Assembly: GCA_004212975.1 (NCBI GenBank)
Contig: SHBF01000001.1
Location: forward strand, 2,801-66,800
Source of the DNA: SAR86 cluster bacterium
Lineage (GTDB): Bacteria > Pseudomonadota > Gammaproteobacteria > Magnimaribacterales > D2472
Direction of reading: 5' to 3'
DNA length: 64,000 nt
The position numbers and the translations under genes were made by a program. Within the stretch, counting starts at the first letter, position 1. Each line of letters opens with the position of its first letter. The notes under the pieces were generated by a model that was not told where the DNA came from, ran no database searches, and saw only the letters and a program-made list of their open reading frames with translations. Shown here in pieces: positions 1 through 7,062 of the stretch.

Positions 1-2247
1 AGAATTAATTCTTTTTTTTGGTAGAGAAAAAGTATGAGTATCAAAATTAAACTTCCCAACACGATTAATCATTAAGTTTTGATTTGTGAGGCTAGGAGTT
101 TTAAAGTCAGATAAGTTAGTACCCATCAAATTTATAGACAGATCGCTTTGCTTAAAATTTATAAGATATTGCATTTGAAGATCAATCCCCTTTACCAAAG
201 TATTATCTTCATTGAAGTAGGTAGTTGTAACTCCTATAAGATCACCAAATTCATTTCTTGTAATACTCGGTCCAAATGGATTTGAAGATAATATTGCTTG
301 AGCACTTTCGACCTCGACTCTATCTTCATATTCTATCTCCCAAACATCTATGCTAATTCTAAGATCATTTCTTTGAAATATTAGTCCAATATTTGAATTT
401 GTTGAGGTAGCTGGTTTCAAATTTGGATTACCTGTTGAGGCTTGTCTTACAAAAACCGAATCATTAACGTCTCTTACGCTTCCAAGATTAATTTCACTTG
501 AGTACATTTGCGCCATAGATGGTGCAGAAAAAGCGGTTCCTTTGGAAAATCGAATTGTTAGAGCATCAGCTACATTATATTTCAATGAAATCTTTGGATC
601 GAATGATGATTCATTCTTCATAGACTCATATCTTGCTGCAACTCTTAAATCTAAAGCCTCTTGAATACTTTTTTCTATTTCAAGAAATAAAGCATTGCTA
701 GTCCTTGATTTGGATAAATTAATTCCTCCACCCAGAAAGAAAAGGTCAGCTGTTTTCACTAACTTTCCATCCTTATCAAACTCAGCTCTACTAACTTCAT
801 CATAATAAATATCTAAACTTTCTTTATTTAGTTGAAACCCATAAGCTAAATTGAGGTTTTTTAATTTCCTATTAAATATTCCATGTACAGAAATAAGGTC
901 AGCTACTTTTGATGAAACTTCTGCGCCTCTAACATAATCAATAAGAGATTTTGGATTTTGAGTTGAATCAAATATATTCCAAGTAAGATTTCCATCAGGA
1001 CCACCATTTCCTTTTATGGCAGCAAGAAATCTTGAATCAATAATATCAGGCCTAAAGTGATCATTGGAGTGCTCACTCACAGTTATAGATATATCGGCAT
1101 CAGTTGTTTGATTGATTAAAAAAGAAAGACTGTAATTAACATTAAATTGTTCAATGTCTTTAGGTGAGTAGGGTGACTTGAATTCCGAACCAAGAGGTCT
1201 GCCATACCATACAACTGGAACATTAAAAGGGCTCCCGCCCTCACCAGGCTCAATATTTCTTGATAAAAAAGGAAGAGCAGGATATGAAGGAGATTGAGGA
1301 TTATCGTTTACATTAACTTTAGATGATATGAAATGGAAATTATGTTTTAAAACCCCCGTTTCTTTTGAAAAATTCAAATAAATTTTTTGATGATCCTCAT
1401 CATTTACAATATTGAATCTTTCTCCATATAAAAATCTACAAAAACTTCCATCAAGAACGCCGCCATTTTCTTCACAATTTGGATCTGGAACAAATTGACT
1501 TACTTTTGGGTAAGCTCCAGCAAAAAGTCCAGATGAAACAATATCCGGACCAAGCACCTTGAAGGTTTTACCAAGACCACTTAATCCCAATTCAGCAATT
1601 CCATCTATTTCACTTGCAGACAATGGAGACCTCTCAAGCGCATTGAAACCAATCACAAGTTTTCCATCTAGGATTTTTGTTCCAAACAAAATACCAAAAC
1701 TATTATCATCTTGATTATAGTTTGTAGTAGTCTGTTTACCGGCTTTAACCCTTAATCCTTCAAATTCTCTAAATGTAAGAAAATTAACAACTCCAGCAAT
1801 TGCATCTGAGCCATATATTGATGTTGCACCTTCTTTTAGGATTTCTATTTTTTCAATAGCAATTTCTGGAACAATATTTGCATCAATGTAGCCATTTCCG
1901 TTATTGGATGGTGTTCCTGAAAAAGTATGTCTTCTAGAATTTAATAGTAATAAAGTTGCGGAAGCATCCAAACCCCTTAATGTAATTGATGACATGCCCT
2001 GATCAACCCCTTCAAGTGCATTTGTTTGAAATCTAGATCCTGAGCTTACGTTCAAATACTTACTTATTTCACCAATATTTGTGATATTAAAATTTTTATA
2101 ATCATTTTCATTAATAAGTTGAACAGGCGATAAATCACTTTCTGCATTTTTTAGAAGTGTTCCTGTCACAACTATTTCTTCAATTTCGTTTGAGTGAATA
2201 AAAAAAGAAAAAATTAACAAAGAAAAGACTTTTATCATTAATCGCAT
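1..2247 (-). CDS. TonB-dependent outer-membrane receptor, N-terminal ~749 codons only (C-terminus lies beyond window start)
   Basis: My own minus-strand translation of 1801-2247 and 1-72 is stop-free in this frame, and the track lists no ORF of 60 aa or more anywhere in 1-2324. So the frame is probably open from ATG 2247 (alt ATG 2238) to position 1, which would explain its absence from the ORF track. N-term MRLMIKVFSLLIFSFFIHSNEIEEIVVTGTLL (signal peptide plus TonB-box-like EIVVTG). Plug motifs ITLRGLDASATLLLLNSRR and IEKIEILKEGATSIYGSDAIAGVVNF. Confidence 0.85.
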   Translation of the reverse strand, partial: MRLMIKVFSLLIFSFFIHSNEIEEIVVTGTLLKNAESDLSPVQLINENDYKNFNITNIGEISKYLNVSSGSRFQTNALEGVDQGMSSITLRGLDASATLLLLNSRRHTFSGTPSNNGNGYIDANIVPEIAIEKIEILKEGATSIYGSDAIAGVVNFLTFREFEGLRVKAGKQTTTNYNQDDNSFGILFGTKILDGKLVIGFNALERSPLSASEIDGIAELGLSGLGKTFKVLGPDIVSSGLFAGAYPKVSQFVPDPNCEENGGVLDGSFCRFLYGERFNIVNDEDHQKIYLNFSKETGVLKHNFHFISSKVNVNDNPQSPSYPALPFLSRNIEPGEGGSPFNVPVVWYGRPLGSEFKSPYSPKDIEQFNVNYSLSFLINQTTDADISITVSEHSNDHFRPDIIDSRFLAAIKGNGGPDGNLTWNIFDSTQNPKSLIDYVRGAEVSSKVADLISVHGIFNRKLKNLNLAYGFQLNKESLDIYYDEVSRAEFDKDGKLVKTADLFFLGGGINLSKSRTSNALFLEIEKSIQEALDLRVAARYESMKNESSFDPKISLKYNVADALTIRFSKGTAFSAPSMAQMYSSEINLGSVRDVNDSVFVRQASTGNPNLKPATSTNSNIGLIFQRNDLRISIDVWEIEYEDRVEVESAQAILSSNPFGPSITRNEFGDLIGVTTTYFNEDNTLVKGIDLQMQYLINFKQSDLSINLMGTNLSDFKTPSLTNQNLMINRVGKFNFDTHTFSLPKKRINS

Positions 2248-2275
2248 AATGTTGATTATAGAGGTTTTAATGAAC

Positions 2276-2304
2276 ATAAAAAACTGGCCCAAATTTGGGC
2301 CAGT
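2276..2304 (-). terminator. Rho-independent terminator after the His-rich TonB receptor gene
   Basis: Perfect GC-rich palindrome ACTGGCCCAAATTTGGGCCAGT (2283-2304), followed on the minus strand by a T-run. It begins 20 nt after the stop codon at 2325-2327. Confidence 0.8.
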
Positions 2305-2324
2305 TTAATTTCTATATTGAAATA

Positions 2325-4553
2325 TTAGAAGGTTAGATTAAATTTTAATCCATAGTTTCTTCCAGGAAGAGGAACTTCATTTTTCACAAAAGAAGAGTGA
2401 TTCCTGGCAACTTCATCAAGAAGGTTATTAGCGAAAAGCGAAACTTTTAATTCACCTTCACCCATTCCATTAAATGTTTTGGTTAGTCGTGTGTTAAGCA
2501 TTTGATAAGCATCAGTTGCTGTTTCACCTTCACCAATATCATTTTGTTTTTCAACATCCTTAAGCATTAGCTTAAAGAGCAAATCATCTTGAGTATAAAC
2601 TAAAGAATAAATGTTTCTTGCTGGATTAATCCTTGGTATGTAATGTCCATCAGCGAATTCAGCATTCACAACATCTCTTCCGAAAGATAAAGCAAGCTCA
2701 CCAGAGCCAAGATCAAAACTTCTTCCAATTTCAATCTCGTATCCATCAAACTCAGCATCTTCTTGCATGTAATTAGCATGAATCAAATTACCATGACCAT
2801 GATCATCATGCTCGTCTTCATGATGTTCACCTTCCTCTTCATGATGATCATCTTCGTCTTCATGATGTTCATCTTCATCCATGTGATCATCTTCTTCATC
2901 TATTAAAGCAATATAATTATCCACATCAGTGATATAAAAACTTGCGTAAGCATAGAAATCACCATTATCAAAATTAAAAGTGATATCAAAGTTATTAGAA
3001 GTTTCACTGTTTAGATTTGGATCACCGACTTCAAATCTTCCTGTTGCCATATGAGGTCCATTCATGAAGAGTTCAATTGAAGATGGCAGTCTTTCAACAC
3101 TAGCATAACCAAGACTAATACCAAGATTATCGGTTAGACTTCTACCAAGAGTTACAGCAAAACTGTTAGTAGAATCATCTATATTGTAATAATCTACTTC
3201 TCCATGCTCATCTCCATGATCATCATCATGTTCTTCTTCAGTAACACTTCCACTTCTTTCTATTTGGTCGTGTCTAAAGCCGACATCAAGATCATATATT
3301 CCTAAATCTTTACTGAGGTAATAACCGATTGTGAATTCTTTACTATTAGCAGGATTCATAAATGCTTCTTCACCAACAATAGAGTTATCTTCATCAACAA
3401 AATTTACAACAACCTTTTGAGTTGAAGAGTCATTTGAAATATCAAAAGTAGCACCATACTCAACAGCCTCATTCATGAAAACGGTTGGACCAAGTTCTTC
3501 ATGATCTTCTTCTTCTTCATGTTCTTCTTCTTCATGACCTTCTGTAAGTGAGTAATCTGAATCTCGGTATGTAAAGTCAACTTTATTAACAAGATTTCCA
3601 TTAACATTATATGAACCTCTTATAGAAAAAGTTTCAGAATCAGTTGTGGAAAAAATTCTTTCTTCACCATGCTCTTCTTCATCACCATGTTCGTCACCAT
3701 GTTCATCTTCGTGCTCGTCGCCATGAAATGGAATACCATAAACACTTTCAAGATTATCAATTCCAAATCCAATGTAGCCCCAGTCTGTTACTTTAGATAC
3801 ACCGAACTTAGTTGCCTCAACAGCAAAATCTGAGTTATTTATATATCCTAAATCTTCCTCAGAATGCTCATCTTCATGATGTTCATCTTCATCGTGATCA
3901 TCTTCATCATGATGCTCTTCCTCTGAATGAATTACAGCACCACTAGGAACATCATAGTTTCCAAAATCAGTATTTTTATAGCCAAAATTAACATTAAATC
4001 CACCAACATTGCCTTTTAAATTAACAAATTCTGAATTTCCGTCATTTACAGATTGAGATTCATATCCAACTGAAACCTCAGGAATTTCAAAATTCTTAGT
4101 TGAAATTAAATCATCAACAACATTGATAATTCCTCCTATGGTCCCATTTGCGTATAGAAGTGATGAAGGTCCTTTGACAATTTCTACTTGAGAAATATCA
4201 TTCAAATCTACGTCATTTAAGTGATCAACGCCAAGACCAGAAACATCTCTGTTCACGACACCATTTTTAAGTATTTTTACTCTTGGGCCTGACATGCCTC
4301 TAATTATTGGTTGGCCAACTGCTGAACCATAGTCTGCAATTGAAAGACCAAGATACTCATCAATCGCATCACCCAAACTTGTCGTTGCTCCATCTGAGAA
4401 TTCAGCACCATCAATGACGTATAGTGGATTATTAATTTCACTTGTATCGATAAAAGCCGAAGTAACAACTATTTCTTGTACCTCATCTTGTGAAGTTATG
4501 TTTATCGAATGAAATGCAATTAAAACAATAATTGCGTTTAAAAATTTTTTCAT
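2325..4553 (-). CDS. TonB-dependent receptor with five His/Asp/Glu-rich insertions
   Basis: 742 aa. Signal peptide MKKFLNAIIVLIAFHS, EIVVTS TonB-box-like segment, plug motif PIIRGMSGPRVKILKNG and IVKGPSSLLYANGTIGGIINVV, C-terminal GRNYGLKFNLTF with terminal Phe. Strong AAGGAGG RBS upstream of the ATG at 4553. H/D/E blocks at aa 209-234, 277-298, 339-353, 439-452 and 552-588. Confidence 0.9.
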   Translation of the reverse strand: MKKFLNAIIVLIAFHSINITSQDEVQEIVVTSAFIDTSEINNPLYVIDGAEFSDGATTSLGDAIDEYLGLSIADYGSAVGQPIIRGMSGPRVKILKNGVVNRDVSGLGVDHLNDVDLNDISQVEIVKGPSSLLYANGTIGGIINVVDDLISTKNFEIPEVSVGYESQSVNDGNSEFVNLKGNVGGFNVNFGYKNTDFGNYDVPSGAVIHSEEEHHDEDDHDEDEHHEDEHSEEDLGYINNSDFAVEATKFGVSKVTDWGYIGFGIDNLESVYGIPFHGDEHEDEHGDEHGDEEEHGEERIFSTTDSETFSIRGSYNVNGNLVNKVDFTYRDSDYSLTEGHEEEEHEEEEDHEELGPTVFMNEAVEYGATFDISNDSSTQKVVVNFVDEDNSIVGEEAFMNPANSKEFTIGYYLSKDLGIYDLDVGFRHDQIERSGSVTEEEHDDDHGDEHGEVDYYNIDDSTNSFAVTLGRSLTDNLGISLGYASVERLPSSIELFMNGPHMATGRFEVGDPNLNSETSNNFDITFNFDNGDFYAYASFYITDVDNYIALIDEEDDHMDEDEHHEDEDDHHEEEGEHHEDEHDDHGHGNLIHANYMQEDAEFDGYEIEIGRSFDLGSGELALSFGRDVVNAEFADGHYIPRINPARNIYSLVYTQDDLLFKLMLKDVEKQNDIGEGETATDAYQMLNTRLTKTFNGMGEGELKVSLFANNLLDEVARNHSSFVKNEVPLPGRNYGLKFNLTF
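2857..2879 (-). repeat. 23-nt exact repeat copy A (codes DEDEHHED in insertion block 5)
   Basis: tcttcatgatgttcatcttcatc on the + strand, identical to 3871-3893. Confidence 0.9.
3871..3893 (-). repeat. 23-nt exact repeat copy B (codes DEDEHHED in insertion block 1)
   Basis: tcttcatgatgttcatcttcatc on the + strand, identical to 2857-2879. Confidence 0.9.
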
Positions 4554-4573
4554 ATTGCCTCCTTTATGAAAAA

Positions 4574-4597
4574 TTAGTTAAAAAATTAATTAACTAA
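4574..4597. repeat. AT-rich inverted repeat TTAGTTAA-N8-TTAACTAA between the small His-rich ORF and the receptor gene
   Basis: 8-bp perfect arms read directly from the sequence. It overlaps the TAG stop (4594-4596) of the small ORF and lies about 20 nt upstream of the receptor RBS. Confidence 0.4.
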
Positions 4598-4863
4598 TCT
4601 AAAGGTGGAGCTCTTGATAGGTTTGATTTTTGTTTTTGACTTACAAATCTATTGATTAGATTTGTTTCAGGAGATTCTTTTAAAAAATTGCCTTTATTTT
4701 TTGTTGAAGCAATTTTAATTTCAACATTTTCTTCACAAGCTTGGCATTTAGCCAAATGCTCATCTTCAAAGCTGAAGTGATCATGATGATCCGCAAAGCT
4801 GTGCAATGACAAACTTGCTAGAAATAGGAATGAATATAGTAGATATTTTTTATTCATGATCAT
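4594..4863 (-). CDS. Small secreted His-rich / CxxC protein (unknown family)
   Basis: 89 aa (87 aa from ATG 4857). Signal peptide NKKYLLYSFLFLASLSLHSFA, then DHHDHFSFEDEH and CQAC. The start overlaps the end of the upstream dehydrogenase gene. No family recognised. Confidence 0.55.
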   Translation of the reverse strand: MIMNKKYLLYSFLFLASLSLHSFADHHDHFSFEDEHLAKCQACEENVEIKIASTKNKGNFLKESPETNLINRFVSQKQKSNLSRAPPLD

Positions 4864-5917
4864 GGGTAAGGCATACTAGACCATTAATCTTTCCATTTTT
4901 CAAGTCATTTAAAGTTTTATTTGCCTCTGAGGCATTTCTTTTTTCAACCTCTACATGTTCAATCTTGTTTTCTCTTACAAACTCCATTAATTCACTCATT
5001 TCTTGCAGACTTCCAACATAGACTCCTCGAATGGTTCTTGCAGTTAAAGTTGTCATTGGAAGCTGTAAGTTTGTTTCTCCTCCAATCAAGCCAACAATTA
5101 CATATGTACCACCTCTTTTCATACCGAACATTCCAGATGCAAGCTCAAACGTCTCAGCTGCACCTACAAAATCAATGACACTGGTGGCACCACCATTAGT
5201 AAGTTCTGCAATTTTTTCGAACAACTTCTCGTCTCTTGAATTAATTACTTCAGATGCTCCAGCTTGTTTTGCTAGCTGAAGTTTTTCATCATCTATATCA
5301 ACAACTATAGGGTTAATCGAGTAGGCTGCTTGAATGATTTTTAATGAGAGTAATCCGAGCCCTCCAGCGCTTATGATAACAACAGAATTTTGACCTTTAA
5401 CTAAATCTGCTTTTTTAAGCGCACTGTATGCAGTCAAACCTCTGCAAGCGTAACTTCCAGCAACTTCGTCTGGAGTATCCCCGGCATCAAATAAATATTT
5501 AGAATCAGGCACGAGAACGTATTCAGCATAACCACCGTCTACATTAATGCCTAAATTTTTTGTTGTTAGAGGTGAACAATAATGCTCTCTATCATTAGCG
5601 CACTCATCACAATTACCACATCCTATCCAAGGATATGCAACATATTTTTTTCCAATTTCAATACCCGAAACATCTTCACCTAACTCAACCACTTCACCAT
5701 ATATTTCATGACCCATAGCAAGCGCATCGGTCATTAGAGGTACTGGAAGTTTTGCTTTTTCCCCCAAACTAAAAAAACCTTCATGTATATGGACGTCTGA
5801 ATGACAAACACCACATGCGACAGTTTTAATTAATATTTCTTTCCCAGTCGGTTTAGGTTTTTCTATTTCTCTTTTTTCTAGAGGTTTACCGTTTTCAACA
5901 ACTTGATATGCTTTCAT
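4850..5917 (-). CDS. Zinc-type medium-chain alcohol dehydrogenase/reductase
   Basis: GVCHSDVH catalytic-Zn motif, GHEIYGEV, structural-Zn cluster CGNCDECANDREHYC, Rossmann ISAGGLG. Start set to ATG 5917 (MKAYQVV...), because the track's start at 5944 is a TTG extension. Confidence 0.9.
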   Translation of the reverse strand: MKAYQVVENGKPLEKREIEKPKPTGKEILIKTVACGVCHSDVHIHEGFFSLGEKAKLPVPLMTDALAMGHEIYGEVVELGEDVSGIEIGKKYVAYPWIGCGNCDECANDREHYCSPLTTKNLGINVDGGYAEYVLVPDSKYLFDAGDTPDEVAGSYACRGLTAYSALKKADLVKGQNSVVIISAGGLGLLSLKIIQAAYSINPIVVDIDDEKLQLAKQAGASEVINSRDEKLFEKIAELTNGGATSVIDFVGAAETFELASGMFGMKRGGTYVIVGLIGGETNLQLPMTTLTARTIRGVYVGSLQEMSELMEFVRENKIEHVEVEKRNASEANKTLNDLKNGKINGLVCLTHDHE

Positions 5918-5921
5918 AGAT

Positions 5922-6002
5922 TTAATTATCTTTATTTGTAACAACCCAATACAACAGACCTATGAGAATAACATTACCGATTATGTAAGTTGTTAAGTCC
6001 AT
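5922..6002 (-). CDS. Possible 26-aa single-TM peptide (speculative)
   Basis: My translation gives MDLTTYIIGNVILIGLLYWVVTNKDN. The ATG lies 3 nt after the stop of the preceding small ORF and the stop lies 4 nt before the dehydrogenase ATG. No clear SD. Confidence 0.25.
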   Translation of the reverse strand: MDLTTYIIGNVILIGLLYWVVTNKDN

Positions 6003-6005
6003 TTA

Positions 6006-6137
6006 TTAACTAAAAAATACAATCAAACATATTATTAAAACAAGGTATATGCCTACATAAACATATTGACCAGTTCTAAAGTCTCTTTTTAAAGCCTCGT
6101 CTTTTTGTGAAGTGTTTTGATTATTAGAATCTTCCAT
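6006..6137 (-). CDS. Possible 43-aa single-TM peptide (speculative)
   Basis: My translation gives MEDSNNQNTSQKDEALKRDFRTGQYVYVGIYLVLIICLIVFFS, a polar N-terminus followed by one hydrophobic span. It starts 21 nt downstream of the tRNA-Thr 3' end. Confidence 0.3.
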   Translation of the reverse strand: MEDSNNQNTSQKDEALKRDFRTGQYVYVGIYLVLIICLIVFFS

Positions 6138-6139
6138 AT

Positions 6140-6158
6140 GAGTAATAATATCATCATA
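6140..6158 (-). promoter_or_regulatory. Fur-box-like 19-mer (weak)
   Basis: Minus-strand TATGATGATATTATTACTC matches GATAATGATAATCATTATC at 12 of 19 positions by my count. It sits at the head of the minus-strand receptor cluster. AT-rich background makes chance matches likely. Confidence 0.25.
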
Positions 6159-6235
<77 letters not shown>

Positions 6236-6342: not shown

Positions 6343-7062
6343 ATGAAAAAATATTTATCTATAACAATTTTTATGATGTCATCAATCCTGATTGCAGATG
6401 ATCATACTGAACCAAATTATTCAAAGTTCCAAGCAAATTATTTCTTTAGCTGCCCTAATGAACCTGCTTGTGGCGCTGCATTCGATAAAATGATGAATAC
6501 TCCTGAAATAAAAGAGCAAAAATATGAGGCTGCTTTATCAAGGATTAGTCTTCAAGGTTATACAAACATTACCCATTCGATTAATTTTTATTACAAAAGT
6601 GCTGAAAGATTCCAAGAAGCATCAGAAATATTTTCTAGTTCACCTGCATTTGCTGTATTTGGACAGGAAATGGCTGCTGCTGGAGCTCAACCGTACTATC
6701 ATAATTTAACTAGTTATTTGATAGCAGAGGGTGATGGAAGAGGCGCTAATCACGGTCTTACTTTTGTTACCGAGGTTAGCAATCCAGTTGTCTATTTTAA
6801 TGCTTTTAAAAAGATGGCTGCAAAGATGTTTGAAGAATCATTTGGTGGTGAGGCGTATCTTTTAAGACAACAGCATACTGGTGGAGGTAATGTAACTCAT
6901 TCAGTATCAGTCTATTTTAACTCAAATGCTGAAGCGCTTGATTTTCTTGCCAATTATCCAAATACAACTCAATTTGCTCAATTTGTTGAAGAAGCAGGAA
7001 CTTCATTTAAACCGGTTAGAACATATATGGAGCAAGTTTTGCTTCAGTACAATCCTGATTAA
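6343..7062 (+). CDS. Secreted hypothetical protein built from two duplicated ~105-aa halves
   Basis: Signal peptide MKKYLSITIFMMSSILIA. The two halves align, e.g. NITHSINFYYKSAERFQEA (aa 75-) against NVTHSVSVYFNSNAEALDF (aa 183-). The beta-alpha-beta pattern suggests a ferredoxin-like/ABM-type fold, which is inference. Confidence 0.7.
   Translation: MKKYLSITIFMMSSILIADDHTEPNYSKFQANYFFSCPNEPACGAAFDKMMNTPEIKEQKYEAALSRISLQGYTNITHSINFYYKSAERFQEASEIFSSSPAFAVFGQEMAAAGAQPYYHNLTSYLIAEGDGRGANHGLTFVTEVSNPVVYFNAFKKMAAKMFEESFGGEAYLLRQQHTGGGNVTHSVSVYFNSNAEALDFLANYPNTTQFAQFVEEAGTSFKPVRTYMEQVLLQYNPD

Follow-up and report, generated by a model that had tools for sequence, protein, structure and literature searches.

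What is the functional unit in a compact run of minus-strand genes that ends in a histidine-rich outer-membrane receptor? This question is raised by a 64,000-nucleotide (nt) stretch of a SAR86 cluster bacterium genome (assembly GCA_004212975.1, contig SHBF01000001.1), referred to here as the window. In it a tRNA gene is followed by two mini open reading frames (ORFs), a zinc-dependent alcohol dehydrogenase (Zn-ADH), a small ORF of 89 amino acids (aa) and a TonB-dependent receptor. SAR86 bacteria are among the most abundant marine heterotrophs and combine a streamlined genome with many TonB-dependent receptors. A sequence-only reading of the locus had joined the five genes into one transcription unit that links a zinc enzyme, a periplasmic His/Cys protein and a His-rich receptor. 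Our analysis, in which motif conservation, fixed spacing, RNA pairing, synteny and similarity to ZnuD were computed, places the borders differently: the functional unit is the 89-aa ORF together with the receptor (4863-2281, minus strand) and not the whole five-gene run. We consider it likely that the 89-aa ORF is a ribosome-stalling leader through which scarcity of metal turns on a zinc-type receptor, with the ADH and the mini-genes as mere neighbours.

Close to its end the small ORF carries the motif RAPP, on which a known class of ribosome-arrest peptides is centred. The features of the ORF and the receptor that carry the argument are:

4863-4594, minus strand: 89-aa upstream ORF, a putative metal-sensing arrest peptide of the RAPP type (CruR/CutF-like)
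4792-4863, minus strand: signal peptide, aa 1-24 (MIMNKKYLLYSFLFLASLSLHSFA), with a basic n-region, a 14-residue hydrophobic core and S-F-A before the predicted cleavage site
4726-4791, minus strand: putative metal-binding segment, aa 25-46 (DHHDHFSFEDEHLAKCQACEEN), with residues that are invariant in the family alignment
4603-4614, minus strand: codons of the RAPP arrest motif (R84, A85, P86, P87), two codons before the stop
4557-4611, minus strand: two-tier RNA structure made of an outer stem pairing with the Shine-Dalgarno (SD) sequence and an inner AT-rich hairpin (4590-4599 with 4572-4581), then a T-run
4558-4564, minus strand: SD sequence of the receptor, AAGGAGG, with six of its seven bases paired in the predicted fold
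4553-2325, minus strand: TonB-dependent outer-membrane receptor, ZnuD-like, 742 aa (Pfam Plug and TonB barrel)
2281-2306, minus strand: intrinsic terminator closing the unit of upstream ORF and receptor, 11 pairs of which 6 are G-C, then a T-run (-21.6 kcal/mol)

The 89-aa protein belongs to a small family. It has 284 protein matches, with 72-99% identity among the matches listed, and a profile search of 1.84 billion clustered proteins found 20 cluster representatives, which are of the same small family or low-complexity. In the genome matches all 14 species-level representatives are SAR86. No Pfam or NCBIfam model matched the protein at E <= 0.01, and Pfam at E <= 10 as well as a profile search of the PDB gave chance-level hits only. 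A secreted zinc protein of the ZepA type was considered as a family match and rejected, since ZepA homologues have a PEP-CTERM and confident predicted folds and the 89-aa protein has neither. In an AlphaFold2 model the helix of the signal peptide is the only confident part (predicted local distance difference test, pLDDT, 77-87); beyond it no confident fold was obtained, with pLDDT below 55 and a predicted template modelling score (pTM) of 0.25.

The ORF is built in a fixed order: a signal peptide (predicted, read by eye from the sequence), DHHDH, H36, CQAC-E-E-N, a low-complexity linker, an invariant KSNLSRAPP, two residues and the stop. D25, H26, H27, D28, H29, H36, C40, Q41, A42, C43, E44, E45 and N46 are invariant in the family alignment. 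Both motifs are carried by 124 of 137 family sequences, the rest being truncated, frameshifted or single-residue variants. Within these 124 members the sequence RAPP is present in 123, the distance from CxxC to RAPP is 40 aa in 123 (41 in one), and 121 have exactly two residues between RAPP and the stop. KSNLSRAPP survives synonymous changes, with four codons used for Ala and two for each Pro, and further changes in Ser, Asn and Leu; the constraint therefore acts on the peptide. Moreover, this is the sole occurrence of RAPP, RGPP or RAGP in the 23,164 aa of ORF space in the window, and none of the other 229 of the 230 small window ORFs carries one of these motifs at its C-terminus. Proteomes were described to avoid RAPP strongly, with an enrichment at the C-terminal end of small secreted proteins whose ORFs precede regulated genes (PMC12992588). 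One studied example is CruR, in which a predicted export signal, a CXXC motif and RAPP at fixed spacing near the C-terminus serve to control a downstream TonB receptor by copper (PMC9426467). On its motifs, the 89-aa ORF is most likely an upstream ORF that regulates in cis as an arrest peptide of the RAPP class.

Could the protein instead act after its release from the ribosome? The sequence-only reading had assigned to it the role of a periplasmic His/Cys partner in metal handling. Such a protein would be stable and, in the periplasm (like PA4063 or ZinT) or after release from the cell (like the secreted ZepA of Anabaena), would act as a metal chaperone or scavenger that passes metal to or from the receptor; its RAPP would be incidental. 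The signal peptide, the invariant His and Cys residues and the strict co-location with a metal receptor would all agree with this role, and precedents exist in small His-rich zinc proteins and in a secreted zinc-binding protein that works with a receptor (PMC8561739, PMC10957091). However, the mature part has no predicted fold, and a motif that bacterial proteomes avoid outside arrest peptides (PMC12992588) is invariant here, at a fixed distance from CxxC and two codons before the stop, in codons that would mask the ribosome-binding site (RBS) of the next gene. The mature form of CruR, which is the closest analogue, is presumed to be short-lived and to serve no further purpose. We regard a chaperone as unlikely and a cis-acting regulatory arrest peptide as the better reading; the two roles are not mutually exclusive.

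The codons of the conserved C-terminus also take part in a predicted RNA structure. The 68 nt from 4615 to 4548 fold with a minimum free energy of -15.2 kcal/mol (z = -3.06), and 1 of 200 shuffled sequences folds as well. In the outer stem GCU-CCA-CCU-UUA, the codons of A85-P86-P87-L88, is predicted to pair with six of the seven bases of AAGGAGG. Inside it lies the AT-rich hairpin with its 10 pairs and the T-run behind; on its own this hairpin reaches -4.8 to -9.1 kcal/mol. Conservation of the structure was judged from folds of the individual sequences, since the SD halves are out of register in the MAFFT alignment. The same two-tier fold was predicted for all 15 distinct sequences from relatives, with -10 to -18 kcal/mol; one of the related loci, L027, has two compensatory pair changes, and the loop lengths across the relatives range from 5 to 11 nt. 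A protein operator in the spacer was also considered, but it is unlikely because the loop lengths, and with them the spacing of the arms, vary over this range, and it was ruled out. Rfam contains no known RNA element matching the locus except the tRNA.

The masked sequence itself stands out in the window. AAGGAGG is the sole SD match of 6 or 7 nt among the 49 long ORFs, about half of which have no recognisable SD. At all loci it begins 44-49 nt past the first base of the P86 codon. The spacer that separates the two genes has 40 nt and is AT-rich and C-poor. The sequence-only reading had found no internal terminator; there is indeed no strong one before 2281-2306, but the spacer contains the conserved AT-rich hairpin with its T-run.

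This structure might be thought to act on its own. The hairpin and the T-run would then be an attenuator or a stabiliser, the genes would be joined by ordinary coupling, and APP would be kept only for its pairing with the SD. The conservation of a hairpin with a variable loop and a T-run behind it would suit such RNA-only control, as would the fact that CCN CCN codons are a natural anti-SD. Yet Arg84 and KSNLS are invariant though they lie outside the pairing, the third positions of the Ala and Pro codons vary where the amino acids do not, and the fixed 40-aa spacing from CxxC would be left unexplained. Control by RNA alone is, in our view, very improbable.

For the stalling leader we infer that the ribosome stalls, that metal relieves the stall, which way the response runs and which metal is sensed, and the following course of events is proposed. 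When metal is scarce, the ribosome would stall at RAPP with P86 in the P site, as expected from the known RAPP mechanism. At that point the signal peptide and the segment DHHDH...CQAC would be just out of the exit tunnel; C43 would lie just outside because it is 43 residues from the P site and about 30 residues span the tunnel. The stalled ribosome would cover the mRNA to about +15 and so occupy the 5' strand of the outer stem in full, together with most of the hairpin's 5' arm. AAGGAGG, about 29 nt past the edge of the ribosome, would be freed for a second ribosome and the receptor would be translated. The stall may also block the weak hairpin and T-run from ending transcription. When metal is plentiful, its binding to the nascent His/Cys segment would compact or pull the chain and relieve the stall, as copper does for CruR; termination would follow two codons on, the mRNA would refold and the RBS of the receptor would be masked again. 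A related effect was described for SecM, where Zn2+-dependent folding of a 29-aa Cys2His2 domain releases the stall (PMC4571824). Since the target is an importer, the polarity of CruR is expected by analogy, with metal turning expression off.

Consensus scans of the window for Fur and Zur boxes gave a regional best of 5 mismatches in 19 positions (Fur) and 8 in 23 (the 23-nt Zur box). Shorter Zur cores scored no better at the locus than elsewhere in the window, and none of the box matches has an intergenic promoter position. That no Fur or Zur box was found fits post-transcriptional control.

Which metal would such a switch serve? The top NCBIfam model of the receptor is ZnuD (NF038289), which is still the best-scoring family although its 183.8 bits compare with a cut-off of 950; because of this difference we call the receptor ZnuD-like and not ZnuD. 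Among solved structures, only that of Neisseria ZnuD (4rdr) is matched over the plug as well as the barrel (E = 3e-31); the others align in the plug alone, at E = 1e-7 or weaker. The buried high-affinity zinc site of ZnuD consists of D99, H100, E340 and H499 (PMC4557270). Three of these four have counterparts in the SAR86 receptor: D110/H111 correspond to D99/H100 and H501 to H499 in the alignment, and all three are invariant across 32 homologues. Besides, HGDEHEDEHGD (aa 277-287) aligns with H241-D251 of ZnuD, the peripheral zinc sites of loop 3.

An AlphaFold2 model of the receptor, based on 32 close homologues and with a mean pLDDT of 50, was used for strand order and loop parity only; it has, at this low confidence, 22 strands and short periplasmic turns. 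The five predicted extracellular loops 2, 3, 4, 6 and 8 hold 28 of the 35 His of the receptor and are rich in His, Asp and Glu (H/D/E):

3819-3965, minus strand: loop L2, aa 197-245, strands 3/4; 53% H/D/E; 39-49 aa in homologues
3663-3743, minus strand: loop L3, aa 271-297, corresponding to ZnuD loop 3; 63% H/D/E; 13-42 aa in homologues
3486-3530, minus strand: loop L4, aa 342-356, strands 7/8; 80% H/D/E; 10-29 aa in homologues
3198-3239, minus strand: loop L6, aa 439-452; 86% H/D/E; 6-22 aa in homologues
2775-2900, minus strand: loop L8, aa 552-593, strands 15/16; 81% H/D/E with 11 His; 28-46 aa in homologues

Loops 3 and 6 were placed independently through the alignment to ZnuD. Loop L6 stands directly before the residue aligned to ZnuD 459 and so lies within ZnuD loop 6 (430-459). 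The loops are encoded by coding repeats rich in GA(A/T)/CA(T/C) (window 2775-3965), and length differences between close homologues suggest that these repeats frequently expand and contract.

The same switch could sense and import another metal, namely copper, as with CruR and CrtA, or nickel or cobalt. The CXXC motif is the copper-sensing motif of CruR, the catalogued RAPP ORFs are mostly copper-linked, and CutF-like proteins with His only have been linked to nickel and cobalt. If the signal peptide is cleaved after SFA, the mature N-terminus is DHH with His at position 3, as in amino-terminal motifs that bind Cu(II) or Ni(II), which also counts for copper or nickel. The receptor, however, argues against such a metal. 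The copper receptor OprC matches in the plug only, at about 2.5e-4, against 3e-31 over plug and barrel for ZnuD; the copper model TIGR01778 (OprC/NosA) scores 36 bits with a cut-off of 472; and no CrtA-like match of note is among the structure matches. Moreover, the ligands D99/H100/H499 and the loop-3 cluster of ZnuD are conserved, and the locus lacks genes for PepSY, PCuAC, Sco and YcnI, the usual company of CruR. Copper, nickel or cobalt therefore appears somewhat unlikely. Zinc is favoured because the receptor is specifically ZnuD-like, and judged from this similarity the chances that it is the metal are roughly even.

Several points weigh against a zinc-responsive stalling leader. The case for a switch is wholly computational, and stalling would follow by analogy. 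The strength of RAPP arrest varies with upstream context and species, and Pro-Pro codons (CCN CCN) pair with GGAGG partly automatically. True compensatory changes occur in one lineage only (L027) and the z-score of the fold is moderate. CXXC is a classic Cu(I) motif, the ZnuD score of 184 against 950 bits is far under the cut-off for a metal that is read from it, and the receptor model with its mean pLDDT of 50 is poor. The equivalent of ZnuD E340 falls in a region that was aligned neither by the profile search nor by a search with the middle segment. Thirteen family members were scanned, and none matched DUF2946, the family of CruR, even at E <= 10. The spacing between CxxC and RAPP is 40 aa and not 45 as in CruR, where it is kept to within 1-2 residues and is thus about as rigid, and the spacer is AT-rich with 40 nt where that of CruR has 162 nt and is Rho-terminated. 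As for the direction of the response, copper relieves stalling on CruR but enhances it on CutF (PMC9426467, PMC9973294). Finally, the mature peptide may have a second, periplasmic role.

How far does the unit reach upstream? The features on that side are:

6159-6235, minus strand: tRNA-Thr(UGU), found by ARAGORN and Rfam, at the same position in relatives
ATG at 6137, stop ending at 6006, minus strand: mini-ORF 1, 43 aa, a small membrane protein with no Pfam or NCBIfam match
6002-5922, minus strand: mini-ORF 2, 26 aa, a small membrane protein with no Pfam or NCBIfam match
ATG at 5917, stop ending at 4850, minus strand: Zn-ADH, a medium-chain alcohol dehydrogenase (Pfam ADH_N and ADH_zinc_N)
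4850-5917 in the window, 6823-7959 in L001, 5947-7011 in L015 and 5817-6950 in L022: dehydrogenase slot
4871-4904, minus strand: promoter-like block (TTGAAA, 19 nt, TAGTAT) inside the 3' end of the Zn-ADH
7950-7990 in L009 and about 5850-5890 in L027: the block in relatives

The coordinates, gaps, overlaps, RBS and strong terminator given in the sequence-only reading were all reproduced on the minus strand. The gaps are 21 nt between tRNA and mini-ORF 1, 3 nt between the mini-ORFs and 4 nt between mini-ORF 2 and the ADH; ADH and 89-aa ORF overlap by 14 nt, or by 8 nt if the second ATG is used, and 40 nt with AAGGAGG at 4564-4558 separate the 89-aa ORF from the receptor. Likewise, the identities of the ADH and the receptor hold by Pfam, NCBIfam and motifs.

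A comparison of 27 related loci (L numbers), classed by tblastn, gives a different picture of the arrangement. The loci of 14 SAR86 species split into three modules, the tRNA with the mini-ORFs, a dehydrogenase slot, and the pair of 89-aa ORF and receptor. The pair is adjacent in 14 of 14 species and on every metagenomic contig long enough for both genes. In the first module tRNA-Thr(UGU) is followed by both mini-ORFs, intact in at least 16 loci regardless of what comes next. Mini-ORF 2 has 7/3/24 variable sites by codon position (15 distinct DNA sequences), and on account of this variation it is a real gene; with both intact in the relatives, mini-ORF 1 is counted as a real gene as well. By their constant position they belong with the tRNA and not with the receptor. 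In the second module most relatives have two convergent amidohydrolases with signal peptides after the mini-ORFs and then an iron-type ADH (Fe-ADH, PF00465). L015-L017 and L020 have the amidohydrolases with a Zn-ADH, and L022 has an Fe-ADH without amidohydrolases; a Zn-ADH joined directly to mini-ORF 2 was found only in this window and in L014. All four combinations, Zn-ADH or Fe-ADH with or without the two amidohydrolases, are thus seen in SAR86. As judged from these loci, the tight spacing in the window is a derived deletion state common only to L014, and ADH, mini-ORFs and tRNA are adjacent modules that were brought together by deletion.

These layouts bear on the proposal that all five genes are one metal-acquisition operon, with the zinc enzyme as client, the 89-aa protein as periplasmic His/Cys chaperone and the receptor as His-rich importer. 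The junctions are tight here and no strong terminator precedes 2281-2306. Moreover, some ADH stands directly upstream of the 89-aa ORF in 14 of 14 species, where it is replaced ORF for ORF and never lost, and neither variant has a terminator between the ADH and the 89-aa ORF. However, the convergent amidohydrolases that follow the mini-ORFs in most relatives preclude a shared transcript with the ADH there, and the compact layout is derived by deletion and present only here and in L014. The ADH partners are non-homologous, a zinc-dependent medium-chain dehydrogenase/reductase in one case and an Fe-ADH in the other, and a zinc-requiring and an iron-type enzyme are incompatible with a single metal-sparing or metal-client logic. 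In addition, the 89-aa ORF has a conserved promoter-like block directly before it, and an inner-membrane transporter, TonB/ExbBD and a metal regulator are all absent at the locus. A five-gene operon is quite unlikely in the light of these observations. Of the claims about the locus as a whole, co-transcription probably stands for the ADH and the mini-ORFs in this window, since the 4-nt gap leaves no room for a promoter of the ADH's own, but the promoter-like block in the last ~50 nt of the ADH speaks against a single unit. A functional link of the ADH to the receptor is unsupported, as a non-homologous Fe-ADH occupies the slot in most relatives. The metal-related character holds for the conserved and coupled pair of 89-aa ORF and receptor, which is kept in 14 of 14 SAR86 species, but not for the five genes, whose compact layout is not a conserved unit. 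The earlier reader was right to sense a metal-related unit, but included too many genes in it and gave the small protein the wrong role.

The dehydrogenase slot has a history of its own. The Zn-ADH matches ADH_N (E = 6e-26) and ADH_zinc_N (E = 4.6e-24) and has the zinc motifs GVCHSD, GHE and CGNCDEC-x7-C with the catalytic and structural ligands. Its top NCBIfam model is AdhP, with a score under the cut-off, and its top PDB match is 2eer, the NAD-dependent ADH of Sulfolobus (E = 3e-62), in an alignment that runs through the C-terminal LNDLKNGKING. The Fe-ADH of the relatives is nearest to 4-hydroxybutyrate dehydrogenase (470 bits, cut-off 500). In the Fe-ADH loci, the 45-55 nt from the Fe-ADH stop to the 89-aa ORF hold a conserved block, CTTGAAAAAT...ATTAATGGTCTAGTAT, which shares homology with the 3' end of the Zn-ADH coding sequence, where DLKNGKINGLVC is encoded. 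Upstream of the ATG of the 89-aa ORF 39 of 48 nt are identical between the window and L009, and the block is retained as non-coding DNA in all Fe-ADH relatives, even in the most divergent L026 and L027. By alignment to PDB 2eer, DLKNGKINGLVC is the canonical C-terminus of the Zn-ADH enzyme family; therefore, the block in the Fe-ADH loci is a relic of a Zn-ADH gene. Its retention implies that a Zn-ADH was the ancestral neighbour of the 89-aa ORF, and the relic was probably kept for a signal within it, a promoter. The -10-like hexamer, TA(G/T)TAT, ends 9 nt before the ATG of the 89-aa ORF (9-13 nt across loci). No SD was found between the block and this ATG, and the promoter scan, which permits spacers of 16-18 nt, did not call the block with its 19 nt. 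Our tentative reading is that the block acts as a promoter from which the 89-aa ORF and the receptor are transcribed with a short leader or none.

The exchange of Zn-ADH and Fe-ADH is ORF-precise at the 5' end. It could represent enzyme alleles sorted by the available metal cofactor, or neutral mosaicism. A zinc-sparing role of the Fe-ADH beside a zinc receptor was ruled out here, where the slot holds a zinc-requiring ADH. The region 1-5917 was also compared with L014-L017, L005 and L022. At the DNA level msrA is about 80% identical to its counterparts in other SAR86 species; the Zn-ADH reaches 96-97%, the 89-aa ORF 95-98% and a second receptor gene 95-100%. The His-rich receptor falls into two identity classes of about 90% and 72% that are unrelated to the ADH type. 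Going by these values, the region looks like a mosaic from recombination between species.

Some further observations concern the flanks. Mini-ORF 2 encodes a peptide of the form MDLTTYIIGNxxLIGLLYWVVxNKDN; both mini-ORFs (with their promoter-like site, window 5922-6174) follow tRNA-Thr(UGU) in all SAR86 loci and have no family assignment. In relatives the stop of mini-ORF 2 touches or overlaps that of the convergent amidohydrolase (L001 4027-4107, with equivalents in L005, L009 and L015-L027), a junction with zero intergenic room for terminators. Before mini-ORF 1 there is a promoter-like site with a -35 CTGACA within the 3' end of the tRNA and an extended -10, TG-n-TATTAT, which stops about 7 nt before the first ATG, and its mRNA would be nearly leaderless. 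On the plus strand, 6343-7062 encodes a protein of 239 aa that has a signal peptide and is matched by no Pfam or NCBIfam model. Relatives have it either in a form that is ~81-92% identical or in one that is just 32% identical, and in 8 related loci no match spans at least half of the protein. At the other end, a second and larger TonB-dependent receptor of about 853 aa (window 1-2247, minus strand; L001 10648-13209) begins 78 nt past the terminator. It has only weak family matches, of the haem/transferrin and siderophore types, and no RAPP ORF upstream, and its DNA is nearly identical in several species.

If the stalling leader operates as proposed, a cis-acting peptide switch would explain how SAR86 tunes a trace-metal importer without a dedicated regulator. 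To our knowledge, the metal-sensing arrest ORFs studied experimentally all respond to copper, and a zinc-sensing one would possibly be a first. It is conceivable, but doubtful, that the ORF is the first zinc-sensing nascent peptide, whose Cys2/His-type segment would bind Zn2+, free the RAPP stall and turn off a ZnuD-like receptor without a Zur-type factor. Metal limitation of SAR86 could then be read from ocean metatranscriptomes, either by ribosomes piled up on the RAPP codons or by the amount of receptor transcript relative to that of the leader. For annotation, the 89-aa "hypothetical secreted protein" would become a regulatory leader, and the ADH would be kept out of the metal operon.

The combination of genes had been regarded as an undescribed system. 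It fits, however, into the class of CruR and CutF (PMC9426467, PMC9973294, PMC12992588). Fujiwara et al. 2025 catalogued 5,450 RAPP ORFs upstream of genes annotated as "TonB-dependent receptor", encoding small secretory proteins with a C-terminal RAPP, and their supplement contains 14 RAPP and 13 RGPP ORFs that precede genes with the annotation of a zinc-regulated receptor (PMC12992588). The class, and even the zinc link, is already on record; that work is a bioinformatic listing whose zinc-linked members were neither analysed nor tested, and SAR86 is not named in the accessible part of its supplementary files. Judged by its motifs, the 89-aa ORF is probably a new, SAR86-restricted member of the known RAPP arrest-peptide switches that precede TonB-dependent metal receptors.

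The closest counterpart is CruR, a DUF2946 protein, with its transporter CrtA/BfrG in Bordetella pertussis (PMC9426467, PMC12914433). Both are upstream ORFs with an export signal, an invariant CXXC and RAPP at a fixed distance, and in both a TonB-dependent metal transporter follows directly, a Fur-type box is lacking and the protein is predicted to be poorly structured. RAPP stands 3 residues from the C-terminus in CruR and 2 in the SAR86 ORF. CruR is first in its unit; the SAR86 ORF, with the promoter-like block before it, may be so too, though read-through from the ADH is possible. In CruR, copper sensed via CXXC relieves the arrest, and Rho then stops transcription before the gene of the TonB transporter (PMC9426467). 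This termination takes place in a GC-rich spacer of 162 nt, whereas the SAR86 spacer has 40 nt, is AT-rich and masks the SD in the predicted fold. Homology between the two proteins is not detectable and the SAR86 ORF has an extra DHHDH cluster; its receptor is ZnuD-like and not of the CrtA type, and no PepSY_TM gene follows.

In this masking the SAR86 locus resembles CutF-CutO of Rhodobacter capsulatus. CutF combines a copper motif and a Pro motif at its C-terminus with a signal peptide, and when the ribosome stalls on it, a stem-loop over the RBS of the next gene is opened (PMC9973294). A stem-loop of this kind would likewise open under a stalled ribosome in SAR86, where the fold is predicted only. 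The SAR86 ORF agrees with every rule in the rule-based definition of CutF-like proteins: it has 89 aa with PP at positions 86-87 and a signal peptide, and after a further 40 nt the receptor gene starts on the same strand. Some CutF-like clusters have His-rich motifs and were linked to metals other than copper (PMC9973294). In contrast, the target of CutF is a detoxifying multicopper oxidase and that of the SAR86 ORF an importer, so the opposite polarity is expected, with metal relieving the stall instead of enhancing it. No sequence relationship between CutF and the SAR86 ORF has been shown.

MifM, with about 95 aa, has nearly the same geometry as the 89-aa ORF. In SecM-SecA, MifM-YidC2 and ApdA/ApdP an N-terminal export or insertion signal is likewise combined with a C-terminal RAGP or RAPP, and the downstream RBS lies in a stem that is melted by the stalled ribosome (PMC7897499, PMC10951233, PMC10987492). 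These peptides, however, monitor the export machinery and regulate Sec or YidC genes, whereas the target in SAR86 is a metal receptor and the chain contains a putative metal-binding segment. On the side of the receptor, we know of no report of an arrest-peptide leader for ZnuD. ZnuD of Neisseria meningitidis is the only full-length structural relative (4rdr; PMC4557270), and D99/H100, H499 and the His/Asp cluster of loop 3 are kept. It has one loop rich in His, Asp and Glu where the SAR86 receptor has five of varying length, and no Zur box was found at the SAR86 locus. Among these systems, the predicted SAR86 switch joins motifs like those of CruR with masking of the RBS like that of CutF, placed before a ZnuD-like receptor.

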